A stretch of DNA of 64,000 nucleotides from Lentisphaerota bacterium (GTDB taxonomy: Bacteria > Verrucomicrobiota > Kiritimatiellia > CAIQIC01 > JAGNIJ01): assembly GCA_052033915.1 (NCBI GenBank), contig JBPOJF010000003.1:58695-122694 (forward strand). The letters run 5' to 3'. Under the pieces are notes generated by a model. It made no database searches and was not told where the DNA came from. It worked only from the letters and a program-made list of their open reading frames with translations. The position numbers were made by a program, and so were the translations under genes. This document shows positions 9,959-62,876 of this stretch, in pieces. Positions within the stretch are counted from its first letter, which is position 1; each line of letters starts with the position of its first letter.

Positions 9959-10666
9959 ATGCGCGGATTTGGAGAAAACAGAACAGCGGCGGCCGCCGCG
10001 TGGGCCCACGGAATTCCTTTCGCGGCGTGGCTCGCGCTGATGGCGGTTCCGGGTCTTCCGCCGGCGTGGAACTACGCGCTCCGGACCGTGGTTTGCCTCG
10101 CGCTGTTCGTGCGGCTGTCTCCCTGGCGCGGATATGATCGCCCGCAATTCCGGCATCTGCCGCTCGCCTTCGTTGTCGGCGTTGCCGTTTTTGCGGCCTG
10201 GGTTTTGCCGGAGAGTTCCTGGGCCGGGCGCTGGCCCGCGCTGCAGGATCTCTATTTGCGATGGGCGACCCTTCCCCTGGGAAAAATCCCCGAGCCGCAG
10301 ACCCTGTTCCCGTACGCGCCTGAAGCCTGCGGCTGGCCGCTTGCCCTGGTGCGGCTGGCGGGCTCCGCCTTTGTGATCGCGCCGATCGAGGAGTTTTTCT
10401 GGCGCGGGATGGCCTATCGCTGGCTGCTGGGCAAGGAGTTCACGAAGGTTGATCTCGGCACCTTGCGCTGGCCGATCCTGCTCGCCGTTTCCTTTTGCTT
10501 CGGGCTGGAGCATGACCGGTGGCTGGCCGGTATGGTCGCGGGCCTAGCCTACGGGCTCGTTGCGATCCGCGCGCGCAACATCTGGGCCGCGTGCGTGGCG
10601 CACATCGTCACCAATCTTCTGCTGGGGTTGTATGTGCTGGCGATGGCGGCGTACAGATTCTGGTGA
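9959..10666 (+). CDS. CPBP-family intramembrane metalloprotease (CAAX protease / abortive-infection-like)
   Basis: Three CPBP motifs: PIEEFFWRG (EExxxR), FCFGLEH (FxxxH), CVAHIVTN (HxxxN); multiple TM helices. Confidence 0.8.
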   Translation: MRGFGENRTAAAAAWAHGIPFAAWLALMAVPGLPPAWNYALRTVVCLALFVRLSPWRGYDRPQFRHLPLAFVVGVAVFAAWVLPESSWAGRWPALQDLYLRWATLPLGKIPEPQTLFPYAPEACGWPLALVRLAGSAFVIAPIEEFFWRGMAYRWLLGKEFTKVDLGTLRWPILLAVSFCFGLEHDRWLAGMVAGLAYGLVAIRARNIWAACVAHIVTNLLLGLYVLAMAAYRFW

Positions 10667-10723: not shown

Positions 10724-12220
10724 TTACGTCGTGAGTTCATCGCCGCTTCGGATGGCATCGAGCGCTTCCGCGGGTGATTGTGCGTCGAGCAGGCGGTCCC
10801 ACACGTAGGAGCTTTCGCGCAGGGTGGCGATGCGCGCGAGCAGGCGGCTCTGCATGCGCGGGATGCTGCTGGGAGTTAGAAGCAGGAAGAGCCCCAGCGC
10901 CTTTTCGTCCGGAAGTTTCGGATCGAATACGACCCCTTCGGCGGAACGCGCGAAGTACAGCACCGGCGTCTTGATCGAGTCGAGGCGGGCATGGGGCACG
11001 GCCAGACCCTCGCCGAGATAGGTGGACAGGCTTTTCTCGCGCGTCTGGACGGCCTCGATGACGGCTTGCGGAGGCATGAAGGTCTCCTCCGAGCCGCACC
11101 GGTTGATGATCTCGGCGATGGCGTCGTTCGCGGTTTCCGCCTGCAGGTCAAGCAGGATGAGGTTTTCCTTCAACACATCCCCGAGGCGAAGCGGAGCTTC
11201 ATTCTCGAACTCGTCCTCGATCGAGCCGACAAGCTGTTCGAGGATATCTTCCAGGGTAATCAGGCCGCAGAGCTGGCCATTGGCGTCCTGTACGAGGGCC
11301 ATATGGATTCGCCGCCGCCGCAATTCGGTCAGGAGCTGTTCCAGCGGGGTGTCGGGGGTGGTGAGAAGCGTCTTGTGAGCGATGGCCTTGAAATCGGTGG
11401 GTTCAGGCCACGGCGTATTGGAGCGCGCGAGATCCTTGATGTGAACGATGCCGATCGGGCGCGGCGGGTCGCCCTCGAGAAGCGGGTATCGGCTGTGCAG
11501 GGTTGACTCGATCTTCTGACGGTTCTCTTCCCAGGGATGATCCGCGTACAGCACGGTGGACTGGTCGAGCGGCCGCATTTCGTCGCGCACCCGTATGCTG
11601 CCGAAGTCGAAGACGTTTTCCATCAGGAGAAGCCGCCGGAAAGGCATCATGCCTTCCTGCTGCGATTTTTCGAGGATGAGCCGGACTTCGGCTTCGGTGG
11701 GCGCGGCGTCCTTGGGCGACTGTTGTATGCCGAACGGCCGGAGAATCAGGCGCACGATCCCGTTCAGCAATATGAGCGGGAGATAGAATATCCAATGGGC
11801 TATGCGCATCGGCCAGGCCACGAGCAGGGTGGACCGGATCGGGTGGCTGATGGCCACGATTTTCGGAACCTGCTCGCCGAGAATGATGTGAAGGGCGGAT
11901 ACGACGATGTAACTGATCGAAATGGCCGCCGCGTGGGCGGCCGCCGGGTTCTCGCCCAGGAACGGCTTCAACATGCCGGCGAGCGCCGGCTCGCCGACGA
12001 AGCCGAGACCGACGCTGGTAAAGGTGATGCCCAGCTGGCAGACCGCAAGGTACTCGTCAAGGTGCTTGTGGATGTGATCCACGAAGGTCACGTTTTGGCC
12101 CTTGTCCTTCAGGACCTCGACCTGCGTTCCGCGCACGCGCACAGCCGCGAACTCCGCGACCACGAAGAATGCGTTCAGCAACAGCAACAGGATCAGGATG
12201 AGAATGTAGACCAGAGTCAT
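10724..12220 (-). CDS. CNNM/CorC/TlyC-family transporter core (DUF21 + CBS pair) fused to a C-terminal PTS EIIA type-2 (EIIA-Ntr-like) domain
   Basis: N-terminal DUF21 TM region, CBS pair (...RIHMALVQDANGQLCGLITLEDILEQLVGSIEDEFE), then a ~150-aa domain with GLAVPHARL phospho-histidine motif in place of the usual CorC_HlyC domain; ATG at 12220 (the 12241 start is TTG). Confidence 0.8.
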   Translation of the reverse strand: MTLVYILILILLLLLNAFFVVAEFAAVRVRGTQVEVLKDKGQNVTFVDHIHKHLDEYLAVCQLGITFTSVGLGFVGEPALAGMLKPFLGENPAAAHAAAISISYIVVSALHIILGEQVPKIVAISHPIRSTLLVAWPMRIAHWIFYLPLILLNGIVRLILRPFGIQQSPKDAAPTEAEVRLILEKSQQEGMMPFRRLLLMENVFDFGSIRVRDEMRPLDQSTVLYADHPWEENRQKIESTLHSRYPLLEGDPPRPIGIVHIKDLARSNTPWPEPTDFKAIAHKTLLTTPDTPLEQLLTELRRRRIHMALVQDANGQLCGLITLEDILEQLVGSIEDEFENEAPLRLGDVLKENLILLDLQAETANDAIAEIINRCGSEETFMPPQAVIEAVQTREKSLSTYLGEGLAVPHARLDSIKTPVLYFARSAEGVVFDPKLPDEKALGLFLLLTPSSIPRMQSRLLARIATLRESSYVWDRLLDAQSPAEALDAIRSGDELTT

Positions 12221-12318
12221 GCTTACGTGTCTGATCAACAAGGGTACCAGAAACTCCAGCGGGGGTCAAACCGGCCCTTGCCCTTGTGCGCGGGCGGGGT
12301 TTTTCTATAATGCGGGGC

Positions 12319-12702
12319 ATGAAGAAACTCGCAGTGCGCACGCAGGGCCGGACGCAATTCGTGGACCTCACCGACCGGGTCCAGTCGGCGGTCTCCGAAC
12401 TCGGGCTGAAGGAGGGCGTGGTCACCGTGTTTGTTCCGCACACGACGGCGGGGGTTACGATCAACGAACACGCCGATCCGGCCGTGATGGCCGACCTGGA
12501 GCAGATCCTGGATCGGATCGTGCCCTGGTCGGGGCCGTATGCCCACGAGGAAGGCAATTCGGCCGCCCACGCGAAGGCCGGCCTGATGGGTTCGTCGGCG
12601 CAGATCATCGTTTCCGGCGGCCGGCTGAAGCTGGGAACCTGGCAGGGAATTTTCCTGTGCGAATTCGACGGGCCGCGCGATCGGGAGGTTTGGGTTCAAT
12701 AG
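12319..12702 (+). CDS. yjbQ: YjbQ/UPF0047 family protein (secondary thiamine-phosphate synthase family)
   Basis: ...VTVFVPHTTAGVTINEHADP...SAAHAKAGLMGSSAQIIVSGGRLKLGTWQGIFLCEFDGPR; a TATAAT hexamer at 12306-12311 sits immediately upstream. Confidence 0.8.
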   Translation: MKKLAVRTQGRTQFVDLTDRVQSAVSELGLKEGVVTVFVPHTTAGVTINEHADPAVMADLEQILDRIVPWSGPYAHEEGNSAAHAKAGLMGSSAQIIVSGGRLKLGTWQGIFLCEFDGPRDREVWVQ

Positions 12703-35155: not shown

Positions 35156-36802
35156 CATATCAAAGCGGCATGTCACGACCGTTCCGCCTTCCCGGCGCGG
35201 CTGTACGTCCAGAGAACCGTCAATCATTGAAGTCCGGTAGCGCATGATTCGAAGTCCCATCCCCTGGCCGCGTTCAGATTCGGAAGGAATTCCCGCCCCG
35301 TTGCTTTCCACCGTGAGTTGCCCTCCGCGGTCGGCTTCCGCGGCCAGCGTGATCAGGATCCGGCTCGGCTTCGCGTGGCGCACGGCGTTGTTCACCGCTT
35401 CCTGCGCGATGTGGTACAGGTGAACGGCCGTGTTGTTGTCGCGCACACGAGCGTCGCCCCTCGTGTGCAATTCGCACTGGATTCCGAACGTTTCGCGGGT
35501 GTCTGCCGCCAACCGCTGGAGCGCATTGGCCAGCCCCTCGTCTTCCAGTTCAACGGGGGCCAGGCCGCGGGCTAACCTGCGCACTTGGGCGAGGGCGTCT
35601 TTCAGAAGCTCGTTGATGTGTTCTGCGCTGTCGCGCGCCTCGCCGCCGGTTTCCGCAAGATTTGTGGCCAGGGTGCGGCTCAGGAACACGGCGCCGGTGA
35701 GTTTTTGTCCCAGCGAGTCGTGGAGATCCTGTCCGACACGCAGCTTCTCGCGTCCGCTGATTTCAAGGATCTCGCTCTCCAGCCGCATCCGTTCCGCCAT
35801 CTCGCGCTCGATCTGGGCCTTGGCCGCGACGAGGTCCGCAGTTCGGTTCCGGACAAGCTGTTCGATCCTTTGTCCGCGGCGGGCCATGAGCAAAAGCTCG
35901 ATCGTCACGAGCAGGGTAACGGCCAGTCCGATCACCAGGATGAACTCCGGCCGGCGGGCGCCATGCGCAAGCAAGTAGTCCGGCGACGCCGCGCAATTCA
36001 GAATCCATGTTTGGTCGGCCACTGCGATGGGGCCTTGGTAGCTGTACCCGCCGGTGTCCAACGGGGTGTATTCTTCTGTAAGGGATATCCGCAAATTCCG
36101 CGAGGCGGGAGTTGCCGCAACGCGGCTGATCACCTGGTTCGGCCGGAAAATGGCGACCGCGAACCCAACGAGGAAGCCCGGAGGCACCACGATGGATCCT
36201 TGAAGATGGGGATACATAATGGGCGCGAAGACATAGTACTCGGTCGGCGAATTGCGGGTCTTGCCGGCAAGAGACGGACTGCCTGTTTCCCTCATCCTGT
36301 TAATGGCTTGGGAGCAGGACTCCTCCGATGCAAAGTCGAATCCGATCGGAACGCCGAGGGCATTGGCGGGCGTCTGGTAGGTGAGGGCGAAGTACTCGGG
36401 CCTGTTGCCGGCGGGGTTGAACCCGTTCTGACCGTCGAAATCCTGGATGACCATGCTTGTCTGGGCTTCGCCCGGGTCGAGTTGTCTTATCAGTTGCCGC
36501 GTGTTCTCGTCGATGCGTTGGACGAATCCGAAGCCTTGGAGAACCCTTTTTTGGAACGACATACCTTTTCTGACGAACTCCTCGAAATCCTTGCTCGTGA
36601 TCTGGTCGGAAATACTGTGCAGTTGCCGGATCGAATCCAACACGTCCATGAAGAGCTGGATTTCCTGCGCCGCCATGCTTTGGAGATTGCGCGCCTCGAT
36701 CTGAAACTCCTCGCGGGTCGCGTTTTGCTCGAGGACCGTGCGCGTGTGCCACAGAAAGACGCTGATCGCGGTCCCTGCCGCCGCCACGAGGAACGCGAAC
36801 AT
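35135..36802 (-). CDS. Sensor histidine kinase, HisKA_3 (NarX/DegS-type) with large periplasmic domain
   Basis: TM1 MFAFLVAAAGTAISVFLW, ~240-aa periplasmic region, TM2, then ...LHDSLGQKLTG... H-box and HATPase_c (..GQGMGLRIM..). Confidence 0.85.
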   Translation of the reverse strand: MFAFLVAAAGTAISVFLWHTRTVLEQNATREEFQIEARNLQSMAAQEIQLFMDVLDSIRQLHSISDQITSKDFEEFVRKGMSFQKRVLQGFGFVQRIDENTRQLIRQLDPGEAQTSMVIQDFDGQNGFNPAGNRPEYFALTYQTPANALGVPIGFDFASEESCSQAINRMRETGSPSLAGKTRNSPTEYYVFAPIMYPHLQGSIVVPPGFLVGFAVAIFRPNQVISRVAATPASRNLRISLTEEYTPLDTGGYSYQGPIAVADQTWILNCAASPDYLLAHGARRPEFILVIGLAVTLLVTIELLLMARRGQRIEQLVRNRTADLVAAKAQIEREMAERMRLESEILEISGREKLRVGQDLHDSLGQKLTGAVFLSRTLATNLAETGGEARDSAEHINELLKDALAQVRRLARGLAPVELEDEGLANALQRLAADTRETFGIQCELHTRGDARVRDNNTAVHLYHIAQEAVNNAVRHAKPSRILITLAAEADRGGQLTVESNGAGIPSESERGQGMGLRIMRYRTSMIDGSLDVQPRREGGTVVTCRFDMSPTSKV

Positions 36803-36960
36803 CCAGGGCCGGCGAGAGGATCGGTTTCCTTGTGCAGATGCTGTCACGGCAGTGAAGTATACGTGACAGACGCTGTGGGACGAAGGAATTCTAAACATCG
36901 CGTCATCCCGACGCGCCTGACGCCGCATTCCGGGTGCCCGACATTTTTCACATCTACGTA

Positions 36961-36989
36961 TTGACACGTAGTTAGCCTATACGTAATTT
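36961..36989 (+). promoter_or_regulatory. Candidate promoter and palindromes in the AT-rich divergent region upstream of the PEP-CTERM cluster
   Basis: TTGACA (36961-36966), 17-nt spacer, TAATTT; overlapping palindromes CTACGT-ATTGAC-ACGTAG and CGTAATTTACG. Confidence 0.2.
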
Positions 36990-37109
36990 ACGGGAAGCGG
37001 GTGAATTATTTCCCGCTCGGTTGGCGGCCCGAAAAGGTGCGAGGAATGCTTAAAACTTTTCTTGACTGTGTACACGGTTAAGGCAAAAGTGCAACAAGAC
37101 GGAGGCGCT

Positions 37110-37856
37110 ATGAAGAAGATTCTATTGCTGGTTCTCGGCGTGATGCTTGTGGGTTCTATGGCGTTCGGCCAAGCCACTCAAGTTCTCAGTCGTAACGCGG
37201 TGGGGTATGTGAAGATCGACGCAAGATCGAATGGGTTGACATTGGTGAGCATTCCGTTCAATGCGTTCTCGAACACAATTTCAGGGGTGCTTGGCTCGCA
37301 ACTTGTCGGCAATAACAATCCGGCAGGTGCGGATCAAATATTCAAATGGGATAACGCTGTGCAGACGTATGTTCGGTACTACAAGCGCGCAACCCCTGAG
37401 AATGAGTGGCGCAAGGTTGGCGAGACGGTTCCGACGACTGATACATTGAGCCCTGGTGAGAGCTTTTTTATCAAGAATAGCCGGCTAACGAACCAGACTG
37501 TATACTTAATGGGTGAAGTGCCTGACGCGCTTACTGCGCCTACATCGACGGTGTCCGGCGTGCCTGGTCTTCAGATGATTTCGTATTCGTATCCTGTGGA
37601 AACAGCGATAAGCAACCTGACACTCTTTGACACGGCAATCAAGAACAACAACCCGGCGGGTGCGGATCAGATTTTGAAGTGGGATATTCCCGCGCAGACG
37701 TATATTCGCTACTACGTTCGTACAACCGGGTGGCGGAAAGTCGGCGAAACCACAAACACAGCGGATACATTGACGCCAAACGAGGGTTTCTTCTATCTTC
37801 GCCGTGGGACAACCTCGTTTGACTGGACTGAAAAAAAGCCGTACACGTGGCCATAA
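37110..37856 (+). CDS. Secreted protein with internal tandem duplication (two ~110-aa repeats ending in a KPYTWP terminus)
   Basis: GGAGG RBS; signal peptide MKKILLLVLGVMLVGSMAFG; repeats NNNPAGADQIFKWDNAVQTYVRYYKR...GESFFI and NNNPAGADQILKWDIPAQTYIRYYVR...EGFFYL. Confidence 0.7.
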   Translation: MKKILLLVLGVMLVGSMAFGQATQVLSRNAVGYVKIDARSNGLTLVSIPFNAFSNTISGVLGSQLVGNNNPAGADQIFKWDNAVQTYVRYYKRATPENEWRKVGETVPTTDTLSPGESFFIKNSRLTNQTVYLMGEVPDALTAPTSTVSGVPGLQMISYSYPVETAISNLTLFDTAIKNNNPAGADQILKWDIPAQTYIRYYVRTTGWRKVGETTNTADTLTPNEGFFYLRRGTTSFDWTEKKPYTWP

Positions 37857-37903
37857 GTATTTGTAGTATCTAGCGTAATAAACGGTTTGAAAGGAGACCG
37901 CAA

Positions 37904-38545
37904 ATGAAGATTAGGTTACTAGCTACTGTTGCCGCGTTGGTCAGCATGGTTGTTTGCGCAAATGCTCAGGTGCAGGTCGCTTGGTGGAACGAGGAGACGT
38001 CTCCGGGTAGCTTTGTGTACAAAGCAGCGATCGATCCAATTAGTGGACTTGTTGTGATGAGCAGTAGCGCTGATCCGTTGGCTGGCGCATTGTTCCAGTT
38101 GATCGAAGCGGCTGGTGCTGCTCCCTCGGCCCCAACCATTGCGGATTTTGGCATCGGAACAGGTCTCACCGGTGGTGACGCGCTTAATAGTTTCGCTTGG
38201 GCTGGCAAGGATGACTATGGTGCTGGCGTGATCTATGAGTTGGCTGGAGCATTCAGCGGCACAAAGCAACTGTATGTGCGCATTTGGGATCGGCCCACTT
38301 CCGGATCTGGCAATATGCCCAATTCGTTTGACTACGGTGGGGGATTGGTTGGTGCGTATTACTATGACACAGCCGTTGAGAGCTTCACAGGCGTTTCCGG
38401 GAGCCCCTCGGCGGCAGACTTAGACTTCACGCCTCCCACGCAGAATGATTGGACCTTCCTTGCGATACCGGAGCCGACCTCGGTGGCCTTGGGCCTTCTC
38501 GGCTTGGGCGTGATTGTGATCCGTCGTCGCCTGATGCGCAAATAG
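37904..38545 (+). CDS. PEP-CTERM sorting-domain protein (exosortase substrate)
   Basis: AAGGAG RBS; N-terminal signal peptide; C-terminal IPEPTSVALGLLGLGVIVIRRRLMRK (PEP motif + TM + basic tail). Confidence 0.85.
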   Translation: MKIRLLATVAALVSMVVCANAQVQVAWWNEETSPGSFVYKAAIDPISGLVVMSSSADPLAGALFQLIEAAGAAPSAPTIADFGIGTGLTGGDALNSFAWAGKDDYGAGVIYELAGAFSGTKQLYVRIWDRPTSGSGNMPNSFDYGGGLVGAYYYDTAVESFTGVSGSPSAADLDFTPPTQNDWTFLAIPEPTSVALGLLGLGVIVIRRRLMRK

Positions 38546-38567
38546 GTTAGGTCACATCGTTCTCCGC

Positions 38568-38606
38568 GCGGGCGTCCCGGTTTCGGGACGCCCGCGTTGT
38601 TTGTGT
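38568..38606 (+). terminator. Rho-independent terminator after the PEP-CTERM gene
   Basis: Perfect 12-bp stem GCGGGCGTCCCG / CGGGACGCCCGC with GTTT loop, then GTTGTTTGTGT. Confidence 0.8.
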
Positions 38607-38673
38607 AGCGTCGCCCGTCCTCGGGCGAGTTCCGAATTGGTCGTGTCCAGATTCTTTCGCACTTTGGTCTTAG

Positions 38674-39321
38674 GTAGATCATCCATCTGGTCATCCTCCC
38701 TTTCCCCTCTCTAGTATCAACACCGTTGGTTACGTCAAACTTTCCGCCGAGAAGGGCAAGTTGACTCTGGGACGCTTCGATTTCGAGCCCATGAACAAGT
38801 CCGGAGGTCTCACTGTTTCCGACATGTTTGGTGAACAGTTGCCCGTGGGTAGCCGGCTTTATCTTTGGGACAGGTCGGTGAAGATGTTCAAGATCGTCGT
38901 GAAACCTCTCGGTGCGGGTTGGGGCGCGGCAGGGCGTACACGGGTTTCAAGAGGGGAGGGCTTCTGGATTCATGTGCCGGAGTCGGCGGCTTCAAACAGA
39001 TATTCCGTCATCATCACGGGCATGGTTCCCAGCGGCATGACTGCGACGACCACGACGATATCAGGCGTGAATCTGCTCGGCCTGCCGTATCCGGTGGAGA
39101 TGAAGTGGACGAACACGGGTATCGCAAAGACGGCGCCGGTGAATTCGGCCGTGTATCTCTGGAATCAGAGCAATCAAACGTACTTATCCTGTGTGAAGTC
39201 GGCCGGCGCGGGTTGGGATGGGGCCGCAGCGGATGCCATCCTGTATCCCGGACAGGGATTTTGGTTTCGGAATACCGGCACGTTTGAATGGGCGGAAGCG
39301 AAACCATACAGCTGGCCGTAG
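38674..39321 (+). pseudogene. 5'-truncated paralog of the secreted tandem-repeat protein (no signal peptide; homology starts right after a stop codon; only a TTG at 38761 could act as a start)
   Basis: NTVGYVKLSAEKGKLTLGRFDF... aligns with NAVGYVKIDARSNGLTLVSIPF... of the 37110 gene; both end in a ...KPY(T/S)WP terminus; two internal repeats with W(D/N)..Y..GW..G..PG(E/Q)GFW pattern. Confidence 0.5.
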
Positions 39322-39549
39322 TGCAACGGGATTTCAATCGGGGGGTTCATCACACGGTTGTGGGCACGTATCCATGGGGGGCTGAGTAGCTCGGTCGGCC
39401 GGATTCTCGTTTCCTTGGGAAATCCTTCCTACAGGTACGACTGGGCGTTACTGGATTCAGCAAAGGAATATTTCTGTTCTTGGAACGAAGCGCTCAACAA
39501 GAGCGGCCTGATTTTATCCAAACAGGACAGGGAAACAGTTGAGGCCCGC

Positions 39550-42500
39550 TTATCGCTTCAACACTTTCAGCGCGCGTTCGCGCCATTCGCCGGAGAGGTT
39601 GGGGAGGGCTTTCACGGCGAGGTCGAAGCCGTTCTTGGCCTGGCCCTGCGCGATCAGGATCTCGCCTTGTACGAGAGTGTGGTTGGCGTCGTCCGGATCG
39701 ATCGTCGATGCCAGCAGGATATGCTCCATCGCCTTGTCGTACTGCCCAAGGCCCTTGCAGGCCTCGGCGAGCGTGTGGTGGTACTTGTCGTTTGAAGGCT
39801 TCAGATTGACCGCCTCCTGCGCCAGCGTCATGGCTTCGGTGAAGCGGCCCATGCGGACCAAGTCGTAGGCCAGGTTGTTCAGGGCGACATCGTAGAGCGG
39901 ATTGTCTCGATTCTTGAGGCATCGGCGCAAGTAAGTCTCCCTGGCTTCAGGCGTATCCATCAAAGACGCCATGGCCAGGTTCCCGATCATGTTGCCGGGA
40001 TCGCCGGACAGCAACTCTTCGGCCTTCTTGCGCGCTTCGCTGTTCCGTCGCAGTTGCATCGAAAGCCGGATGATGTTCTCGCGCAGGGCTGTGTCCTGCG
40101 GGGTCGTGGCCTCGATCGTCTTCATGTGGCTGAGCGCGGTCGCCAGGTCGCCTTTTTTCTGGGCCACGGACGCCATCAGCTTGAGCATGGGCAGGTTCGC
40201 GGCATCGACGGCCAGGACTTTGCGCGCGAACAACTCCGCCTTGTCGTACTGGTTCAACTGCCATGCCGACATCGCGATAAACGACGCCGAAAGAGTCGTC
40301 TGGTTCGTAGTCGAGAGCAACTGGTTGTAGATGTCCTCCCCGCGCGCCGTATCGCGGTTCTCGAGGTAGAGCAGAGCCAGCAGACTCCGGGCGTTCACGT
40401 TGGCGGCCGACGCCGGGTTCTCCTCCAGAACCTGTATTGCCTTCGCGTAGTCTCTCATGTCCCGCGCCGCGACCGCCAAGCCGATCCGGGCGGAGATGTT
40501 GTCGGGCTGAGTCTGAAGGATGCTGCGGTACTCGGCCTCGGCTTCCGCGAGGTCGCCCTTGCCCTGGGCCAGCAGGGCCGAACTGATCTTCACGGAGAGG
40601 CTGTCCGGGTTGATCATCCGGGCTTGGTTGATCGCGCCGGCTTCCATATCGCGCTGGCCGCCGCGCCGCGCGATGTTGGCCATGTTCAGCGCGAAATGCT
40701 CGGAATAGAGGTATCCGTAGTTCGCAGTCATCATGAACGCGGAACGAAGGAACTTGGGGAACGCCGCCGCTTCTCTCTGGGCCCGCTCCAGAAGGGCCTG
40801 TGCCTTCTGGGTCAGCATCTCCGATCGGACGGTATCGCCGCCGCTGTCGGCTTCCTTGAGGTAGATTGCCCTCTGGTTGAGCAGCGCGCTCGGGTTCTGG
40901 GGCAGGATCTTGAGCGCCAGGTCGTAGGCCTTCTGCGCCAGATCGTCCGACTTCAGCAGTTGCAGGGTCACGCCGAGGTTGTTCGCGCACCGCGAGTAGT
41001 TCTGGCGGACGAACATCTTGAGGGTGTTCGTGCTGTGGTCCGAGATCACCGCTTGGAGCTGATTCGCGAAGGTGTTCTCGAAGTAGTTGACGTTCTTCAG
41101 GTAGACCTCAGATGCCTTCAGGCCGGACAAGTTCTCGACAGGCCGCACCACCAGACCGTTCGGCACGAACTGGTAGCCGATTGACAGGGTCAGGTCGGGA
41201 TTGAACAGCGAACATCCGGCGGGGCCCTTTGCGTTGCCGGACACAATCGCCTTCAGGATGTCCGTTTGCGTGGCGTACGCGGAGGCGTTGATGTTGCATT
41301 CAGGGAATAGGGTGGAGAGGTAACGGCGGTACGATGGCCGACTGATGTCCTGGGCCATGACGATGCGCTCGGGCTGGCCTTCCTCAAAGGCGGCATGAAG
41401 GATCATGTCGTCCATGAAGGAGCGCGAAACGACGAAGACGGGCCGGTTTTCGCACGACCGGACGATGTTCCGGATCAACGCCGTCAGTTCGGGGGTCCGC
41501 GGCGGCACGAAGTGGATGTAGTTCATCACGGCGGTCACGATGGCGATCACGAGGTTCGCGATAGCCGCGGTCTTCCAGACCGGCCTCATCCACAGGGAGG
41601 ATAAGTTCGGGCTCGGGATCACCGCGCGAAACCACCAGTATCCCGCGAGATATCCCATCCACGACGCGATCGCGAGATAGGGGATCAGGAAGGGGTCGTT
41701 CAGACCCATGATGATCGTCGGCGTCATGCCCTTCTCGAGGATCTGCGCGACGCCGAGCACGTTCAGCACAAGCAGGGTGACGATGGTCAGCGCATGCGCG
41801 AGCCGCGTCGAGCCGTAATCCGGCCGCGGCACCAGATACACGTAGATCCACGGCACAAACGCGCAGAGCGCGATCAGAAGACCGCCGACACGCGGAAAGA
41901 TGGATTTGACCTCCAAGTACTGCTTGCGCCACAGATCCAGCAGGACGTTCCAGAACCCCGAGTATTCCTGATATCCCCACTCGGGCAGGCGGGCGACGGC
42001 CCCGACAGGCACGATGTAGAAGAGAAGGCCGCAGAAACCAAGGGCGACGAGCAGCCACAGCCGCTTGGCCGTCAACGCGCGCCGGTACAGCAGGGCGACG
42101 AGCGCCGCGATGACGAAGACAGGGCCGAGAGCGATCATTGTCGCGTATTCGGTGACTCCGAGCCCGTAGAGTAGCGCGGCCCCCATGATCCACCGGACGC
42201 TCGCGTTGGCTCGCGCGTACTGGAGGACCATCCAGAAGCACGACAGCAGGATGAAGAGGTCGAACGTGTGGTTGTCCGGCCGCGTGGAGGCAGTCCACAG
42301 CGGCGCGCAGAACATGACGAACAGCGCGGACGCCAGGATCGCCACGCTCTTTGACGCGCGGGACGCGCCGGCGGGGATCGGCGACGCCTTGTCGTGCACG
42401 ACGAACATCGGCAGTCGGTTCAGCAACTGCACGAACAGGACGATCGAAAGGGATCCGAACACGGCGGAAATGAGATTGAGGTTCATGAGGGTCGGACCGG

Positions 42501-42717
42501 GCATCACGCGAACCACGAGCTTCGCGAGCGAGGAATAGAGGAAGTGCGGGAGCACGGGGAGGTAGTAAAGCCCGTTGACGGTGTTGATGATTCGGACTGA
42601 TGTTCCCGGAACAACATCGCGGACCATTGTCGCGAGGTACAGAATAAAGGATCCGATTCCCGCGATCCACGGTGTTAGGCCGGCCAGCTTGGACAATGGA
42701 TGTTTCGATCCCTGCAT
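39550..42717 (-). CDS. GT-C-fold membrane glycosyltransferase-like protein (DUF2723/TMEM260- and PMT-like N-terminal multi-TM domain) with C-terminal TPR array, paralog 1
   Basis: ~450-aa polytopic N-terminus (LYLATMVRDVVPGTSV... loop-1 acidic motif), ~600 aa of TPR repeats; same architecture as the 45624-48620 gene. Confidence 0.55.
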   Translation of the reverse strand: MQGSKHPLSKLAGLTPWIAGIGSFILYLATMVRDVVPGTSVRIINTVNGLYYLPVLPHFLYSSLAKLVVRVMPGPTLMNLNLISAVFGSLSIVLFVQLLNRLPMFVVHDKASPIPAGASRASKSVAILASALFVMFCAPLWTASTRPDNHTFDLFILLSCFWMVLQYARANASVRWIMGAALLYGLGVTEYATMIALGPVFVIAALVALLYRRALTAKRLWLLVALGFCGLLFYIVPVGAVARLPEWGYQEYSGFWNVLLDLWRKQYLEVKSIFPRVGGLLIALCAFVPWIYVYLVPRPDYGSTRLAHALTIVTLLVLNVLGVAQILEKGMTPTIIMGLNDPFLIPYLAIASWMGYLAGYWWFRAVIPSPNLSSLWMRPVWKTAAIANLVIAIVTAVMNYIHFVPPRTPELTALIRNIVRSCENRPVFVVSRSFMDDMILHAAFEEGQPERIVMAQDISRPSYRRYLSTLFPECNINASAYATQTDILKAIVSGNAKGPAGCSLFNPDLTLSIGYQFVPNGLVVRPVENLSGLKASEVYLKNVNYFENTFANQLQAVISDHSTNTLKMFVRQNYSRCANNLGVTLQLLKSDDLAQKAYDLALKILPQNPSALLNQRAIYLKEADSGGDTVRSEMLTQKAQALLERAQREAAAFPKFLRSAFMMTANYGYLYSEHFALNMANIARRGGQRDMEAGAINQARMINPDSLSVKISSALLAQGKGDLAEAEAEYRSILQTQPDNISARIGLAVAARDMRDYAKAIQVLEENPASAANVNARSLLALLYLENRDTARGEDIYNQLLSTTNQTTLSASFIAMSAWQLNQYDKAELFARKVLAVDAANLPMLKLMASVAQKKGDLATALSHMKTIEATTPQDTALRENIIRLSMQLRRNSEARKKAEELLSGDPGNMIGNLAMASLMDTPEARETYLRRCLKNRDNPLYDVALNNLAYDLVRMGRFTEAMTLAQEAVNLKPSNDKYHHTLAEACKGLGQYDKAMEHILLASTIDPDDANHTLVQGEILIAQGQAKNGFDLAVKALPNLSGEWRERALKVLKR

Positions 42718-42873
42718 GAATGAGGAATGCTATAGCGTATCCGGGGCTGCAAATCAATGACTCGCTGTGGTCACGATCTCGCGCACCTGAGCGCGTCCAC
42801 AGACGGTAGAGCTCATGCGCATCGTCCGCCTTACAGCTTGGCGGGTGGCCCTCTTTCTGGCAATGATTTCCGT

Positions 42874-43770
42874 ATGGGTTCCCGCTGTTTCATCGTGGTC
42901 CTTTGCCTTTCGGTTTTGACGCGTGTTGCCGAAGCACAGCCCCCGCCTCTTCGGGTCGTCAGCCTGGCCCCCAACTTGACGGAACTGATGTTTACGTTGG
43001 GCTTCGGCAGCAATCTGGTGGGCAGGTCATCGGCGTGTGATTACCCGCCCGAGGCGAAGCGGATTCCGATCGTCGGCGGCTTCGGAAGGCCGAATTGGGA
43101 GAAGCTCGAAAGCTTGCGGCCGGACCTTGTCATCGCGACGGATCTCGAGAAGCCGGGGCTTCTGGATCGCCTCAAGGAGAGGGGCGTCGAAACCCTGCTC
43201 CTGCCCTGCGAGAGCTGGGATGAGCTTGTTCAGGCGGGACTCACGATCAGTGAGGCGCTGGGCCGGCGCGCGGCCGGGGAGGAGTTTGTCCGCGGCATGA
43301 CCGCGTGTCGCCGCGCGCTCGAGAGCAGAGTCGCCGCCTTCTACGCCGGAAAGCCCGGACCGCGCGTTTATGTCGAGGTCTGGGGCGATCCGTTGCTGAC
43401 GGCGGGGGCGCAGTCGTTCATCGATGATCTGGTGCGGCTGGCGGGAGGCGCGAATATTGCGGCGGAACTGCGACCGACATATGTCCACGTCAGCGCGGAG
43501 TGGGTGATCCAACAGGACCCGGACGTGATTCTGCTGGCCTATATGTTCCCGAACGCTTCGTCCATCGGAAGTGTTGTGAAGCGGCCGGGCTGGGATAAGA
43601 TGCGGGCGGTCCGAAAAAACGCGATCTGCGCCCATATCCCGCCCGACTTGCTGCTTCGGCCCGGCCCGAGAATCCTGGAGGGGGCGGAGATGTTTGCCGA
43701 GTGGATGATGAGGCGGTCGGAGGTCGCCGGCCGGCAGGAAAACAACGAACAACGAACAACTGACAACTGA
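42874..43770 (+). CDS. btuF: Periplasmic binding protein of a cobalamin/iron-siderophore-type ABC importer (BtuF/TroA-like)
   Basis: Signal peptide MGSRCFIVVLCLSVLTRVAEA; RVVSLAPNLTELMFTLGFGSNLVG...PDLVIAT... class III SBP pattern; C-terminal codons come from an AACAACGAACAACTGACAAC tandem repeat. Confidence 0.75.
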   Translation: MGSRCFIVVLCLSVLTRVAEAQPPPLRVVSLAPNLTELMFTLGFGSNLVGRSSACDYPPEAKRIPIVGGFGRPNWEKLESLRPDLVIATDLEKPGLLDRLKERGVETLLLPCESWDELVQAGLTISEALGRRAAGEEFVRGMTACRRALESRVAAFYAGKPGPRVYVEVWGDPLLTAGAQSFIDDLVRLAGGANIAAELRPTYVHVSAEWVIQQDPDVILLAYMFPNASSIGSVVKRPGWDKMRAVRKNAICAHIPPDLLLRPGPRILEGAEMFAEWMMRRSEVAGRQENNEQRTTDN

Positions 43771-43774
43771 CAAC

Positions 43775-44752
43775 ATGCGCGCCCGGATCACATGGTTTCG
43801 AGTTCTGCTCATCGTCTGCCCGATCCTTGTAGCCGCAAGTGTTTTTCTTGGCGACGGCTGGCGCGATCCGCTGTCGCTGTTTCAACCTGAGCGCGCCGGG
43901 ATTCTGACCGTTCGGCTTTGGCGCGTGGCGTTGGGTGCCCTCGTGGGAGCGTCGCTGTCCGTGGCGGGCTGCGCCCTGCAGGCGGTGCTGCGCAATCCGC
44001 TGGCGGAACCGTACGTGCTGGGCTTGTCCTCCGGCGCGGGGCTTGGAACGGCGCTGTGCATCATTGGCGGAGGGCTGGTGCTGAGTTCCCTGGTGTTGCC
44101 GGCGGCGGGGTTTTTCGGGGCCTTGATCAGCATGCTGATTGTCTATCGGCTGGCCAGGGTGGGGCGGGGGACGGCGCCGCATACGCTGATCCTGGCCGGC
44201 GTGATCTGGGGCGCCGTGTGCGGGAGCGTGCTGATGTTCATCGTGTCGCAGTCGTCCGCCGAAGGGCTCCATGCGATCATGTGGTGGTTCCTGGGGGATC
44301 TGCAGGTGTTCGATGTGCGTCTTGTTCAAGCGACCGCCGTGTTAAGTCTGCTGGCGTTTCTCGGGCTCCTGACGATTTCACGGCCGCTGAACGTCCTCAT
44401 GCTGGGCGAGGAAATGGCGGGGCATGTCGGCCTTGAGCCGGAACGGGTCAAGGGAATGGCCCTGGGCCTGGCGGCGGTGCTGACGGCGGCTTCCGTCTCG
44501 GCCAGCGGCCTGATTTCATTTGTCGGTCTGACCATCCCGCACGCCACGCGGGCGCTGGTGGGGCCGGATCACCGCCGCCTTCTGCCGGCGGCCGCGCTGG
44601 CGGGCGCCGCGTTTCTTGCGCTGGCGGACGGGTTTGGGCGGATGCTGTTGTATCCGACGGAAATCCCCGTCGGCGTGATCACGGCTCTGATCGGCGGGCC
44701 GTTCTTCCTGATGATCCTGCGGACGAAGAGGAAGGAAGTCTGGATTGGATAG
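43775..44752 (+). CDS. btuC: FecCD-family ABC permease (BtuC-like)
   Basis: 9-10 TM FecCD permease; ...GLSSGAGLGTALCII..., ...LGEEMAGHVGLEPERVK..., ...GLTIPHATRALVGPDHRRLLP... Confidence 0.9.
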   Translation: MRARITWFRVLLIVCPILVAASVFLGDGWRDPLSLFQPERAGILTVRLWRVALGALVGASLSVAGCALQAVLRNPLAEPYVLGLSSGAGLGTALCIIGGGLVLSSLVLPAAGFFGALISMLIVYRLARVGRGTAPHTLILAGVIWGAVCGSVLMFIVSQSSAEGLHAIMWWFLGDLQVFDVRLVQATAVLSLLAFLGLLTISRPLNVLMLGEEMAGHVGLEPERVKGMALGLAAVLTAASVSASGLISFVGLTIPHATRALVGPDHRRLLPAAALAGAAFLALADGFGRMLLYPTEIPVGVITALIGGPFFLMILRTKRKEVWIG

Positions 44753-45563
44753 AATCTTGAAACTGGAAACTGGAAGCCTGGATTCGGCGGCGCTCGAACT
44801 GAAAGACATTTCGTCCGGGTATGGAGGGGAGACTGTTCTTCGGACGGTTTCTCTTGCCGTTGCGGCCGGCTCTCTTCTCGGAATCATCGGACCGAACGGG
44901 GCGGGGAAGACCACGTTGCTTCGCGTTCTTGGGGGCGGATTGCCCTTCTGGGCGGGCAGCTTGTCCATTCATGGCAGGGATATCCGCCTGTTCGGGCGTC
45001 GTGAGCTGGCGCAGATCGTCGGGTTCGTCCCGCAGACGCTGGATGTGCCGGTGGCTTTTACCGTGGCGGAGTTCGTGGCTATGGGGCGCACGCCGTACGT
45101 CGCGGGCTGGTCGCGGCTGTCCGAGGCCGATCATGCGGCGGTCCGCAGGGCGATGGCAATGACGGATGTCGAGAGGCTGGAAGGCCGGCTGATTGACGAG
45201 CTGAGCGCGGGCGAGAAACAGCGCGCCGTTGTGGCCATGGCTCTGGCGCAGGAGCCCCGGATTCTTCTGTTGGACGAACCGACCGCGCACCTCGATATCC
45301 ACCATGCCTGGAGCCTGATGGCGCTGATCGTGAAGCTGAACAGGGAGCATGGGGTTACGGTGGTTATGTCGTCCCACGATCTCAATCTGGCCGGGGAATT
45401 CTGTTCGCATCTTCTGTTGATGGATCGCGGCCGGGCCGTGGCGCAGGGAACTCCGCGGGACGTATTGGACGTGGGGAGACTGTCCCGTGTTTACCAGCAT
45501 CCGCTGGAGATCGCAATTCTGCAGGGCGATCAGCGGTTCGTGGCGCCGAAAAGGGCGGAGTAA
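44745..45563 (+). CDS. btuD: ABC ATP-binding protein (BtuD/FecE-like)
   Basis: GPNGAGKTT Walker A, LSAGEKQRAVVAMAL signature, LLLDEPTAHLD Walker B; TTG start overlapping btuC end. Confidence 0.85.
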   Translation: MDRILKLETGSLDSAALELKDISSGYGGETVLRTVSLAVAAGSLLGIIGPNGAGKTTLLRVLGGGLPFWAGSLSIHGRDIRLFGRRELAQIVGFVPQTLDVPVAFTVAEFVAMGRTPYVAGWSRLSEADHAAVRRAMAMTDVERLEGRLIDELSAGEKQRAVVAMALAQEPRILLLDEPTAHLDIHHAWSLMALIVKLNREHGVTVVMSSHDLNLAGEFCSHLLLMDRGRAVAQGTPRDVLDVGRLSRVYQHPLEIAILQGDQRFVAPKRAE

Positions 45564-45623: not shown

Positions 45624-48620
45624 CTACAGCATCGGCATTCCGGGAAGGCTCATGGGGAGGCCCGGCTGCTGGATCGGGGGCACCAAGGCCTTGAACTCAT
45701 GGTTCTCGCGCACGGGATTGAACCGCGGATCTTTCCGGATCACATCGCGTACCGGCTCTCCGCCGAGTTCGATGGCGCGCTTGATCGATTGCACGCACTC
45801 GTTCGGTTTCTGCATGGCCGCCTGGATGGCCGCGAGATCGATCCACACATTGGGGTTCGCGGGCTCGCGGGCCAGGTATTTCTCGAGGGCCGTGGCCAGG
45901 AGATCCATGCGCTTGGCGTCCGCATACATCTTGGCGACGGCCAAGTAGGCGTTCGGCGGGATGTTCGTATCGTTCAGAATGCTCATGGTCAGGCCCTGGA
46001 ACTGGCCTTCGAGGTTGAGCTTGCGGTACAGATCCGCCAGTTCCATGGCCGTGTTCAGTTCGCCCTGTCCCTGGTTGAACTGCGCTTCGAGTTGCGCGCG
46101 CCGGTTGTCCGCTTTCTCGGTCTCGCGGATCTGGTTCAGGAAATCGCCGACCTTGGCGTTGCCGGGATCCTCGCGGAGGAATGCGTCAATCAGCTTGCCG
46201 GCATCGGAGAAACGCCGCTGCTGCATGAGGACGTCCGCCAGCCGGAAATTGGCCTCCGGGCTGAGCGGGTAGAGGTCAATGGCCTGCTGGAAGGCGTACT
46301 CGGCCTCGGGGAACATGCGGCGATAGGCATAGATGCCCGCGATCGCGCCGCGCAGCTTGGAGAACGTTTTCCGGGCCACCACGTCGCGCAGGAACTTGGG
46401 GTTTCCGAGCAGGCGCTGCGTGTACCAGTCCCAGAAATCGCGGTCCTTCTTCACCAGTTCCGGCGACAGGGACGGCAGCGGGTCTGAGTTCAGCTTCATG
46501 ATCAGCCCGTTGGGGGTGAGGTAGGGGTACATCCACGGGATGACGTAACTTTCTTCGACGTAGAATGCGTGCTTGTGCTTGTTGGCCTCGAAGATCATCC
46601 GGCACAGGATGCCGTTGATCATCATGACGCCCTGCACGCCCTGCACGCTGACGCGTCCGTTATCGAACTGCACATCCGCGCCCGGGGGGATGCGCCCGGC
46701 CTGCACGTCCTCCACGTACTTCTGGAACGCGAAATTGCTGTCCTGCTGCGACGGAATCCAGATCGTGTCGCCGTACAGGTCGCGCATGACGCTCATGTAC
46801 GTGTTGTCGGCCAGCGCATTCTGCGTAATGAGGTACACATCCGACCGCACCTTGGCGCAGTAGATCATGTACGTGGGGACGAACCGTCCGGGGTCGGTGC
46901 CCCCGAAGAAAATCGCGTTGGTGTCCATCGGCGGGGGGTAATCCGGCGTGGGATACTGCTTCCAGATCTGTTCGAATTCCTCCGCGGACTTCTTGTAACC
47001 GAGGTCCGATCGAATTCCGTCCACACCCTGAAGCTGCCAGTTGCCGAATTGCCAGCCGAAGTCGTGCTGGTTCTGCTCGGCCCCGCCGACGATCTTGATC
47101 TGCTCCTTGTCGTACGCGTTCTGATACAGGAGCACCGCCGGGAACACGACGACGATGACCAGGGCCAGCGGCTTGATGATGCCGCGCCCGCCGAGAAGCG
47201 TTTCAAGATAGGCGAGCGCAAAGAGGGCTCCGTACCCGAGCCAGATGGCGTACACCGCGTGCGACTGGATGAATTGCACGCGGCCGATGAAGAGCGTCTG
47301 GATATCCAGGTCGGGGTTCTGGAATGTGATGAGAACAATGCTGAGCGAGACGAACGCGACCAGCGAGGTGATCAGCCAGGTCCGGCCCCGGCGGTCGATG
47401 CGTCCGATGAAGAAGAAGGGCACCAGGCCGATGAGGGCAAGGGGAAGCGTGAACTGTTGGCGCAGATCCTTGAAGTACGCGCCCAACTGCGCGACGAACT
47501 TGGCCGAGAAGATGTCCGACGCGGTGATCTTCTCGTATTGCCCGCGCGTGAGGGCGTGCTTGAAGCCTTCCGGCGTGCGGGGGTATCCCCAGTTGATCGG
47601 GGGGTTCTGCTCGGAGGAGATGGGCATGAACCCGTTGAACCCGAGCCCCAGCAGGCACAGACTGCCGATGAGCAGGACGCGCTTCCATTCGGTCATGAGC
47701 TTGCGCTCGATCAGGAACAGGCCCACGGGCGCGAGCAGGAACAACACCGCCATCGTGGTTGTTGTGTTCTTCGAGCGCAGGACTTCCGGCGAGAGGTGGC
47801 CGGTCATGGCGCCGGCTTTCCAGAACAGGTACCCGGAAACGCAGAGGGACAGCGCGGCCATGCAGTCGCGGAAGAGCGAGCGGTCGCGGAACCAGATGGC
47901 GGTCACCAGCGCCGGGCCGACGAAGAGAAGGGTCTGGTGGTTCGTGATGCCGAATCCGAACAGGAACGCGGTGATGTAGAGGATTTTGTCCTCCTTCGGC
48001 CGGCACATCCACATGTACGTCAGGAGGAGCAGAAGCATCTGGAAGAAGGCGTTCAGCGCGTACACCTCGACGATGACCGCCTGGGACCAGAGCACGGGGC
48101 TGAAGGCCAGCAGGAGTCCGCCGGTGACGCCGCCGACCCAGCACAAGAGGCTTTCCGTGGAGATCCCGATCACGTCCGTGGTCTTCTTCACGCTGCGGAG
48201 CATGTCCGTTCCGGAGCGGCTGACCAGGAGAGCGAGCATCCCGCAGGCGAGGGCTCCGAAGAAGGCCGAGGCCAGTCCGACGCTCCACGCCGGATTCGGA
48301 TTCCCGTAGTAGCGAACCCAGCCGAAGATCCATTGGAAGAACCATGTGAACAACGTCCAACTGGGATATCCCGGCGGGTGCGGGACGCCGAGATAGTCCG
48401 AACCCACGGCCAGTTCGCCGCTGTCTTCCAGCGTGACGGTGGGGGCCAGGGTGTAGCAGTACACGCCGAAGGTGATCAGGAAGGTGGTCCAGAACGCCCC
48501 CCAGTCCAGTTTCCGGAAGAAGGCGCCGCTTTGATGGTCGAAGAACGCGGCTTTCTCTTCCGGAGATTGCGAAACGGCTTGGGCACGCACGGTTTTATTC
48601 GGGTTTTTATGATCAGCCAT
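45624..48620 (-). CDS. GT-C-fold membrane glycosyltransferase-like protein (DUF2723/TMEM260-like) with C-terminal TPR array, paralog 2
   Basis: ...YCYTLAPTVTLEDSGELAVGSDYLGVPHPPGYP... N-terminal loop motif typical of DUF2723; ~11 TM helices; C-terminal TPR repeats (...YAFQQAIDLYPLSPEANFRLADVLMQQRRFSDAGKL...). Confidence 0.7.
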   Translation of the reverse strand: MADHKNPNKTVRAQAVSQSPEEKAAFFDHQSGAFFRKLDWGAFWTTFLITFGVYCYTLAPTVTLEDSGELAVGSDYLGVPHPPGYPSWTLFTWFFQWIFGWVRYYGNPNPAWSVGLASAFFGALACGMLALLVSRSGTDMLRSVKKTTDVIGISTESLLCWVGGVTGGLLLAFSPVLWSQAVIVEVYALNAFFQMLLLLLTYMWMCRPKEDKILYITAFLFGFGITNHQTLLFVGPALVTAIWFRDRSLFRDCMAALSLCVSGYLFWKAGAMTGHLSPEVLRSKNTTTTMAVLFLLAPVGLFLIERKLMTEWKRVLLIGSLCLLGLGFNGFMPISSEQNPPINWGYPRTPEGFKHALTRGQYEKITASDIFSAKFVAQLGAYFKDLRQQFTLPLALIGLVPFFFIGRIDRRGRTWLITSLVAFVSLSIVLITFQNPDLDIQTLFIGRVQFIQSHAVYAIWLGYGALFALAYLETLLGGRGIIKPLALVIVVVFPAVLLYQNAYDKEQIKIVGGAEQNQHDFGWQFGNWQLQGVDGIRSDLGYKKSAEEFEQIWKQYPTPDYPPPMDTNAIFFGGTDPGRFVPTYMIYCAKVRSDVYLITQNALADNTYMSVMRDLYGDTIWIPSQQDSNFAFQKYVEDVQAGRIPPGADVQFDNGRVSVQGVQGVMMINGILCRMIFEANKHKHAFYVEESYVIPWMYPYLTPNGLIMKLNSDPLPSLSPELVKKDRDFWDWYTQRLLGNPKFLRDVVARKTFSKLRGAIAGIYAYRRMFPEAEYAFQQAIDLYPLSPEANFRLADVLMQQRRFSDAGKLIDAFLREDPGNAKVGDFLNQIRETEKADNRRAQLEAQFNQGQGELNTAMELADLYRKLNLEGQFQGLTMSILNDTNIPPNAYLAVAKMYADAKRMDLLATALEKYLAREPANPNVWIDLAAIQAAMQKPNECVQSIKRAIELGGEPVRDVIRKDPRFNPVRENHEFKALVPPIQQPGLPMSLPGMPML

Positions 48621-62117: not shown

Positions 62118-62193
<76 letters not shown>

Positions 62194-62417: not shown

Positions 62418-62876
62418 TTATGTTCCGGCCGGCCCTGAAAGGGCGTCAAGCACTTCATCCGGGCTGGTCGCGCTGAGAATGCGGTCGCGCACGGCGCTGT
62501 CGTTGAGTTGGCGGCTGATCTCGGCGAGGAATTGGATGTGCGGTCCGGTGCGCGTGTCGGGCGAGAGCGTCATCACGAAGATCCTCGAGGGCAGGCCGTC
62601 CAGAGACCCGAAATCCGTGCCGTCTTTCTTGACCGCGATCGCCGCCACGAGGGAGTCCACCTTGTCGGTCTTTCCGTGCGGAATGGCGATGCCGTTCTGC
62701 ATGCCGGTGGACATCTTGCGCTCCCGGTCGATGACGGCTTTCAGGGCGTCTTTCTTCTCCCTGATCTTTCCGGATGCCATCAGAAAATCGATCATCTCCT
62801 CGATGATCGCTTCCTTCGCGTTGCTCTTCAGATCCAGCAGAACCGCGTCTTTCGACAATGTCTTTCTGAGGTTCAT
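62418..62876 (-). CDS. ptsN: Standalone PTS EIIA type-2 protein (PtsN/EIIA-Ntr-like)
   Basis: NGIAIPHGK phospho-histidine motif; ~150 aa; ATG at 62876. Confidence 0.85.
   Translation of the reverse strand: MNLRKTLSKDAVLLDLKSNAKEAIIEEMIDFLMASGKIREKKDALKAVIDRERKMSTGMQNGIAIPHGKTDKVDSLVAAIAVKKDGTDFGSLDGLPSRIFVMTLSPDTRTGPHIQFLAEISRQLNDSAVRDRILSATSPDEVLDALSGPAGT

Follow-up and report, generated by a model that had tools for sequence, protein, structure and literature searches.

The 64,000-nucleotide stretch of a Lentisphaerota bacterium genome that was analysed here (contig JBPOJF010000003.1; the whole stretch is called the window below) carries on its minus strand, at 10724..12220, a gene for a protein of 498 amino acids in which a CNNM-type transporter core is fused to an enzyme IIA (EIIA) domain of the phosphoenolpyruvate (PEP)-dependent phosphotransferase system (PTS). 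The gene is one unbroken open reading frame (ORF) from an ATG start to the stop codon at 10724..10726. An alternative in-frame TTG upstream at 12241 would add seven residues (505 amino acids), and the 498-residue form is the version chosen by gene callers in public assemblies. The distribution of G+C over codon positions, with a value at third positions (GC3) of 0.81 in a genome of 63% G+C, indicates a real gene, and the identical protein is present on three independent public contigs from different samples. A Pfam domain scan placed all three modules above the curated cutoffs: the CNNM/DUF21 transmembrane domain (11645..12202, minus strand, residues 7-192; PF01595, E 3.3e-41, 141 bits against a cutoff of 28.4), a CBS pair or Bateman module (11213..11599, minus strand, about residues 208-336; two copies of PF00571, 8.6e-13) and a PTS_EIIA_2 domain of the IIA-Ntr/fructose-mannitol class (10748..11176, minus strand, residues 349-491; PF00359, E 1.4e-22, 80.7 bits against a cutoff of 27, covering profile positions 2-142 of 144). 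The first-pass annotation of this DNA had read the same architecture from the letters, with the EIIA domain taking the place of CorC_HlyC and with an intact phospho-acceptor histidine, and on all three points the analysis agrees with it.

Regarding the EIIA domain, a sequence search of the PDB aligned the C-terminal 158 residues with Escherichia coli IIA-Ntr (1a6j, 5e-12) as well as with three further structures of PtsN. In an AlphaFold2 model computed from a 30-sequence family alignment (mean predicted local distance difference test, pLDDT, of 81.9) the C-terminal domain superposes on the IIA-Ntr crystal structures 1a6j and 2a0j with a target TM-score of 0.87-0.88 and a root-mean-square deviation of 2.2 Å. 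The histidine of the GLAVPHARL motif, His410 (codon CAT, 10991..10993, minus strand), aligns with the phospho-acceptor His73 of E. coli PtsN, and Arg394, the arginine of TREK (codon 11039..11041, minus strand), aligns with PtsN Arg57. We found His410, Arg394, Pro409 and Arg412 to be invariant in 81 of 81 species-level homologues, a set spanning 40-80% identity, as one would expect if the phospho-acceptor site is functional.

The junction between the two halves lies at a canonical domain boundary. The Pfam search of the fusion protein gave no match to CorC_HlyC (PF03471) at E≤1. The end of the CBS pair, ...LEDILEQLVGSIEDEFENEA, aligns residue for residue with E. coli CorC ...IEDILELIVGEIEDEYDEED, the segment that precedes CorC_HlyC, so that the EIIA domain fills the structural slot of CorC_HlyC from the canonical boundary onwards. 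The conserved ...LVGSIEDEF motif corresponds to CorC IVGEIEDEYDEED, the start of CorC_HlyC in canonical proteins, and is directly followed here by the junction segment EFENEAPLRLGD (11177..11212, minus strand). For MtCorB it was reported that the C-terminal CorC domain is dispensable for Mg-ATP binding and that hydrogen-deuterium exchange indicates its contact with CBS2 (PMC8242095); the C-terminal slot thus behaves as an exchangeable regulatory position.

The transporter half is related to CorB and CorC. The cytoplasmic CBS pair comes directly after the transmembrane domain and helical bundle, is nearest to that of E. coli CorC and to other CorC/CorB CBS pairs (alignment 3e-19), and in the AlphaFold2 model superposes on CorC CBS pairs with a target TM-score of 0.81-0.88. 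The model gives the CNNM domain three transmembrane (TM) helices and a belt helix, and a Foldseek search with the modelled core returned MtCorB (7m1u/7m1t) as top matches. The π-helix motif in TM3 is intact (G115-E116-Q-V-P119-K120, equivalent to MtCorB Glu111/Pro114/Lys115), with E116 and K120 invariant in all 81 family sequences. N16, F19, V20 and E23 in TM1 and C61-Q62-x-G64-x-T66 in TM2 are likewise family-invariant; N16, V20, E23, C61, Q62, T66, E116 and K120 are absolutely conserved, and I65 is found in at least 90% of the family.

The core is clearly of the CNNM type, but Mg2+ as its substrate is an assumption. The Mg2+ ligands are Ser43, Ser47, Asn90, the Gly129 carbonyl and Glu130 in TpCorC (PMC7875539), and Ser21, Ser25, Ser71, Gly110 and Glu111 in MtCorB (PMC8242095). 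Alignment to both structures gives Asn16, Val20, Ile65, Gly115 and Glu116 as the equivalents, in a transmembrane alignment that is weak (E 0.003) and whose register may be shifted by one residue. The ligand side chains are accordingly substituted at three of five positions (Asn16, Val20, Ile65), by residues that are invariant or nearly so across the family, and the Gly-Glu pair of the π-helix is all that is retained. The label of a Mg2+/divalent-cation transporter given to the core at first is unproven in view of these substitutions. NCBIfam equivalogs were tried for assigning the substrate and rejected, the best being PaeA (115 against 500 bits), followed by GldE and CorC, all far under cutoff. 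The FFVxAEFA/CQLGIT motif, which resembles the MpfA/YhdP-type Mg2+ efflux subgroup of Firmicutes, would leave Mg2+ plausible.

The architecture is widespread. The fusion family comprises at least 120 clusters at 90% identity; the 120 best clusters are 45-100% identical and about 498 amino acids long, with PTS_EIIA_2 present in 120 of 120 and CNNM in 119, the sole cluster without CNNM among them being a shortened entry. Scanning one genome per species gave 193 genomes that encode a relative. The best 80 of these 193 match nearly the whole query length at 40-80% identity and belong, by database labels that may be imprecise for metagenome-assembled genomes (MAGs), roughly to Planctomycetota (53), Verrucomicrobiota (12), Lentisphaerae/Kiritimatiellia (3) and Myxococcota/delta-proteobacteria (5), plus a few others. 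The Planctomycetota members include the isolate Pirellulaceae bacterium SH449 with its complete genome (CP197409.1) and Kuenenia. The closest relatives of the fusion protein, and also the homologues of the free PtsN encoded in the same window, are labelled Kiritimatiellia, Lentisphaerota or Verrucomicrobia. The Planctomycetota MAG SMAG_U3121 (DASVNH01) carries two full-length CNNM-CBS-EIIA copies on different contigs, and paralogues of the fusion hence occur inside one genome. We found neither a description nor an experimental test of a CNNM/DUF21-EIIA fusion in the searched literature, and in this respect the initial impression of an undescribed arrangement stands. It is not categorically new, since the fusion is abundant in sequence databases; some annotation pipelines, for example that of the JGI, name both of its halves, and sister fusions exist. 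The parts are known, namely CNNM/CorB transporters, control of ion transport by EIIA-Ntr in trans and IIA domains in cis of the LacS type, and it is the combination of CNNM with an EIIA in cis that appears uncharacterised.

In addition to the fusion, two more EIIA proteins are encoded near the 3’ end of the window. One is a free-standing PtsN-like EIIA of 152 amino acids (62418..62876, minus strand; PF00359, 2e-31) with the motif GIAIPHGK, which keeps the histidine at the position of PtsN His120. The other, divergent from it, is a Zn_ribbon_9 plus PTS_EIIA_2 protein of 254 amino acids (63253..>64000, plus strand) with its last residues past the window end. The phospho-acceptor histidine is intact in all three EIIA domains of the window, and all have the arginine and the PH motif. 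Being merely 20-28% identical to each other, they are old paralogues. The fused domain is 28-29% identical to the free PtsN of the window (28%) and to E. coli PtsN, and a recent duplication of the local ptsN as its source was rejected on account of this 28% identity. The free PtsN also gives a weak Band_3_cyto match, and a tRNA-Phe (GAA) gene (62118..62193, minus strand) lies directly downstream of it. The pair of EIIA genes adjoins a block encoding a hypothetical protein, a Ser/Thr protein kinase, CHAD, polyphosphate kinase 1, Ppx/GppA and a ROK kinase; this arrangement of EIIA pair and ppk1 block recurs in a relative of 66% identity and may reflect some tie between EIIA signalling and polyphosphate metabolism.

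Searching the full library by phmmer with only the EIIA domain as query yielded 4513 matches, 323 of them at E≤1e-10. Among the best 150 we found the fusion family of about 500 amino acids, many free PtsN-like proteins of about 150 amino acids and longer proteins, the latter with the architectures Na_H_Exchanger+EIIA, Na_H_Exchanger+2xEIIA, Na_H_Exchanger+TrkA_N(+CBS)+EIIA and TerC+CBS+EIIA. Mid-length matches among these 150 are mostly incomplete versions of these architectures or EIIA domains in tandem; one match of 367 amino acids shows a weak PD-(D/E)XK nuclease match before EIIA_2, an unusual pairing that may be spurious or a chimeric gene call. The cassette of CBS pair and EIIA is thus found on three distinct membrane cores, and the sister fusions make a C-terminal EIIA domain on cation transporters a recurrent theme. 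One Kiritimatiellia relative has a free ptsN and, 23 nt downstream of it in the same orientation, a Na_H_Exchanger gene, apparently the unfused counterpart of the Na_H_Exchanger-EIIA fusions. At another locus a homologue of the free ptsN lies near Na_H_Exchanger+TrkA_C and an F-type ATPase operon.

Regarding the local context, the fusion gene is monocistronic, lying convergent to a gene for a CAAX protease (9959..10666, plus strand) and divergent from yjbQ/UPF0047 (about 12310..12702, plus strand). Its farther neighbours encode a TPR protein, a class-IV aminotransferase, an outer membrane protein and a fumarase/aspartase-type lyase, together with mutS. The yjbQ/TPR/aminotransferase surroundings are retained in a relative of 55% identity. 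Five diverse members were compared, and in Planctomycetota and other family members the gene lies in unrelated neighbourhoods; no conserved synteny between the fusion gene and PTS genes was seen among them. The divergent intergenic region towards yjbQ comprises 89 nt (12221..12309). Its plus strand shows, from 12276..12299 onward, a GC-rich hairpin followed by a T-run and TATAAT, and a block CCCGCCCGCGCACAAGGGCAAGGGCC (minus strand) is kept in the two closest relatives. We considered a sigma-54 promoter ahead of the fusion gene (TGGTAC-N5-TTGA, directly before the ATG) and rejected it because the -12 element lacks GC and close relatives lack the consensus spacing. A scan for sigma-70 promoters and terminators of the fusion gene gave nothing exceeding shuffled expectation.

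Elsewhere in the window, positions 36001..40000 have a G+C content of 0.54-0.57 against about 0.63, with ORFs that have no Pfam matches and a PEP-CTERM protein (37904..38545); this stretch may be an acquired or surface-protein island. Two very large proteins combining TMEM260-like (protein O-mannosyltransferase-like) and TPR regions are encoded at 39550..42717 and 45624..48620 (both minus strand), with a Peripla_BP_2/FecCD/ABC_tran transporter operon (42757..45563) between them. A tandem universal stress protein (2 x Usp) at 54002..54844 (minus strand) adjoins rmuC; UspA domains have been proposed as a further ‘plug-on’ transporter regulator (PMC10710835).

In the best reading, which we judge somewhat probable, the fusion places a transporter under phospho-control in cis, through His410 and a regulatory PTS chain. 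The architecture, fold, junction, conserved catalytic residues, family breadth and sister fusions are shown here; we infer the phosphoryl donor, which way the effect goes and the transported substrate, a cation. The protein would be a homodimeric CorB/CNNM-type secondary cation transporter whose cytoplasmic regulatory tail consists of the CBS pair and then of the cis-fused EIIA-Ntr-type domain in place of CorC_HlyC. In a permease-less regulatory chain leading from PEP over enzyme I (EI) to HPr, HPr~P or NPr~P would reversibly phosphorylate His410, the phosphorylation state of which would report the PEP/pyruvate ratio. Phosphorylation would alter the packing of the EIIA domain on CBS2 or the acidic-helical-bundle region, and the altered packing would tilt the CBS-pair dimer and the transmembrane domain towards an active or an inactive state. 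Such a protein would do by covalent attachment what PtsN does in trans to YcgO, TrkA and KdpD, and would parallel LacS, whose IIA domain is phosphorylated by HPr.

Several observations weigh against phospho-control. Genes for EI, HPr/NPr or HprK were not found in the 64-kb window (Pfam, about 55 ORFs), nor were EI, HPr or HprK found in the 10 kb beyond its 3’ end, which contain the Ser/Thr kinase, CHAD, ppk1, ppx and ROK genes. A tblastn search with E. coli and B. subtilis queries gave no EI, HPr or NPr in about 1.4 Mb of flanks of 80 family loci, and no EI, HPr or HprK gene was found beside five diverse fusion members or three free-ptsN homologues. The position of PtsN His120 is occupied by Gln457; across the family the equivalent residue is His in 48 of 81 and Gln in 33 of 81 sequences, with Gln in the clade of the window. 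The NCBIfam models for PtsN score far under cutoff (TIGR01419 50.2 against 138.7 bits; PRK10896 44 against 221), the domain being fused and not free. By equivalog score, by its lack of a free-standing length of about 160 amino acids and by the missing His120 the domain is not PtsN proper. The AlphaFold2 model is also unreliable in its interdomain geometry, with a predicted TM-score of 0.44 and a pLDDT below 50 in the linker 169-203, and interdomain contacts taken from it were discarded as unusable.

Since donor genes were not seen in the examined DNA, it is from the literature on the host phyla alone that we infer a donor in this genome. Planctomycetes and Chlamydiales were reported to have a ‘group R’ regulatory EI and no PTS permeases, with the presence of EI and HPr strongly correlated, while the GAF-bearing EI-Ntr group is exclusive to Proteobacteria (PMC2405797). 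The attribution to a nitrogen-PTS relay in the first-pass annotation is unsupported given this assignment of the Planctomycetes EI to group R, and nothing we found connects the fusion with rpoN or with nitrogen. Kiritimatiella glycovorans has been proposed to gauge PEP/pyruvate by a ‘rudimentary phosphotransferase system’ that would pass the signal on to proteins controlling pH and sodium homeostasis (PMC5148204), and the Na_H_Exchanger-EIIA and TerC-CBS-EIIA fusions are probably the pH/sodium targets alluded to there. The original proposal of phospho-control is accordingly upheld in part: it draws on the invariance of His410, Arg394 and Arg412, on the two further EIIA proteins of the window and on the EI/HPr chains of the literature, and the corresponding EI and HPr genes are the part that was not found in the window or the flanks examined.

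The absence of donor genes from all DNA examined is what would be expected if the EIIA-like domain were never phosphorylated and served as a constitutive allosteric, ligand-binding or dimerisation module, similar to the cytoplasmic domain of Band 3, with the conserved His/Arg pocket binding a small anionic metabolite or another domain. The Gln at the His120-equivalent in the clade of the window and the PtsN model scores under cutoff fit this explanation as well, as does the weak Band_3_cyto match of the free PtsN, the fold having non-PTS roles on transporters. We nevertheless regard it as rather doubtful, given that all 81 sequences keep the phospho-acceptor histidine, in the canonical G-x-A-x-P-H context, and the equivalent of Arg57, that three old EIIA paralogues of 20-28% identity retain the site in one window, and that the permease-less EI/HPr chains reported in the host phyla (PMC2405797, PMC5148204) need acceptors. 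The signal could also run in reverse, with an ion- or Mg-ATP-dependent conformation gating the access of HPr~P to His410, so that the fusion drains or spares the phosphorelay and reports the cation or energy status to other EIIA targets. The CorB CBS pair does rearrange strongly with Mg-ATP, beside the C-terminal domain (PMC8242095), and several EIIA proteins per genome would compete for a single HPr pool. An EIIA domain without IIB or a sugar acceptor offers no obvious phosphoryl sink, however, so that any drain would need hydrolysis or some phosphatase, and regulation of the transporter is the simpler account of why the fusion recurs on unrelated cation transporters; reverse signalling seems improbable to us. 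An artefact, be it a chimeric assembly, a frameshifted gene pair or a pseudogene, has a practically negligible probability in view of the unbroken ORF with its GC3 of 0.81, the identical protein on independent contigs, and the at least 120 clusters and 193 species genomes of equal length and architecture, including a complete isolate genome.

Phospho-control in cis, if it holds, bears on two standing questions, what the C-terminal domain of bacterial CNNM/CorB proteins does and what the physiological output is of the permease-less PTS chains of the Planctomycetes-Verrucomicrobia-Chlamydiae (PVC) bacteria; a conserved and widespread covalent fusion points to ion transport as a direct output of those chains. 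With one polypeptide and one histidine, it would also be a tractable system for the question of how an EIIA domain gates a transporter. Human CNNM proteins are disease-relevant mediators of Mg2+ transport, and a new regulatory logic at the CNNM C-terminal slot would be of comparative interest. In E. coli, PtsN in its unphosphorylated form docks on the CorC_HlyC domain of YcgO, a K+/H+ antiporter, and inhibits the antiporter; binding is weaker when PtsN is phosphorylated (PMC11808508). Taken together with the fusion, this result predicts control by PtsN of CorC_HlyC-bearing transporters in model proteobacteria. As EIIA replaces CorC_HlyC on CNNM, TerC and Na_H_Exchanger cores and PtsN docks on the CorC_HlyC domain of YcgO, one may speculate, though we hold it to be unlikely, that CorC_HlyC, the enigmatic ‘transporter-associated domain’, is a general docking adaptor for EIIA-Ntr and that PVC bacteria have replaced the adaptor by the regulator itself. 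Were this so, the control exerted by PTS-Ntr or the regulatory PTS would reach far more cation transporters, among them, in proteobacteria, the CorB/CorC Mg2+ exporters and proteins of the TerC family.

Among known systems, CorB/CorC transporters (TC 1.A.112; MtCorB 7m1t, TpCorC 7cff/7cfh, E. coli CorC 4hg0) share with the fusion the DUF21 transmembrane domain, the GExxPK π-helix, the juxtamembrane/acidic helical region and a CBS pair ending in ...VGxIEDE(F/Y). They differ in the C-terminus, which is CorC_HlyC there and EIIA here, and in the Mg2+ ligands (Ser->Asn16, Ser->Val20, Asn/Ser->Ile65). The Na_H_Exchanger(+TrkA_N/+CBS)-EIIA(x1-2) and TerC-CBS-EIIA proteins contain the closest relatives of the EIIA domain, likewise placed at the C-terminus and in many cases behind a CBS pair, but on a different membrane core; no experimental characterisation of these sister fusions was found in the searched literature. 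PtsN in trans has the same EIIA_2 fold, the equivalents of His410 and Arg394 in His73 and Arg57, and a cation transporter as target, and the analogy drawn to it at the outset is correct. On YcgO (PMC11808508) it docks on the very domain type that is absent from the fusion. PtsN is a free protein, whereas the fusion is covalent and without an rpoN-linked operon, and the EI of the host phyla (Planctomycetes, PMC2405797) is of ‘group R’ and not a GAF-bearing EI-Ntr. In LacS, a fused IIA-Glc-like domain is phosphorylated by HPr, which tunes transport, and a review stresses such ‘plug-on’ regulatory domains (PMC10710835). LacS differs from the fusion in the IIA superfamily (Glc against the Fru/Mtl/Ntr class here), in the transporter family, in its sugar substrate and in its occurrence in Firmicutes with a full sugar PTS; it resembles the fusion in being a secondary transporter (GPH family) with a C-terminal IIA domain in cis, in which phosphorylation of a histidine modulates transport.

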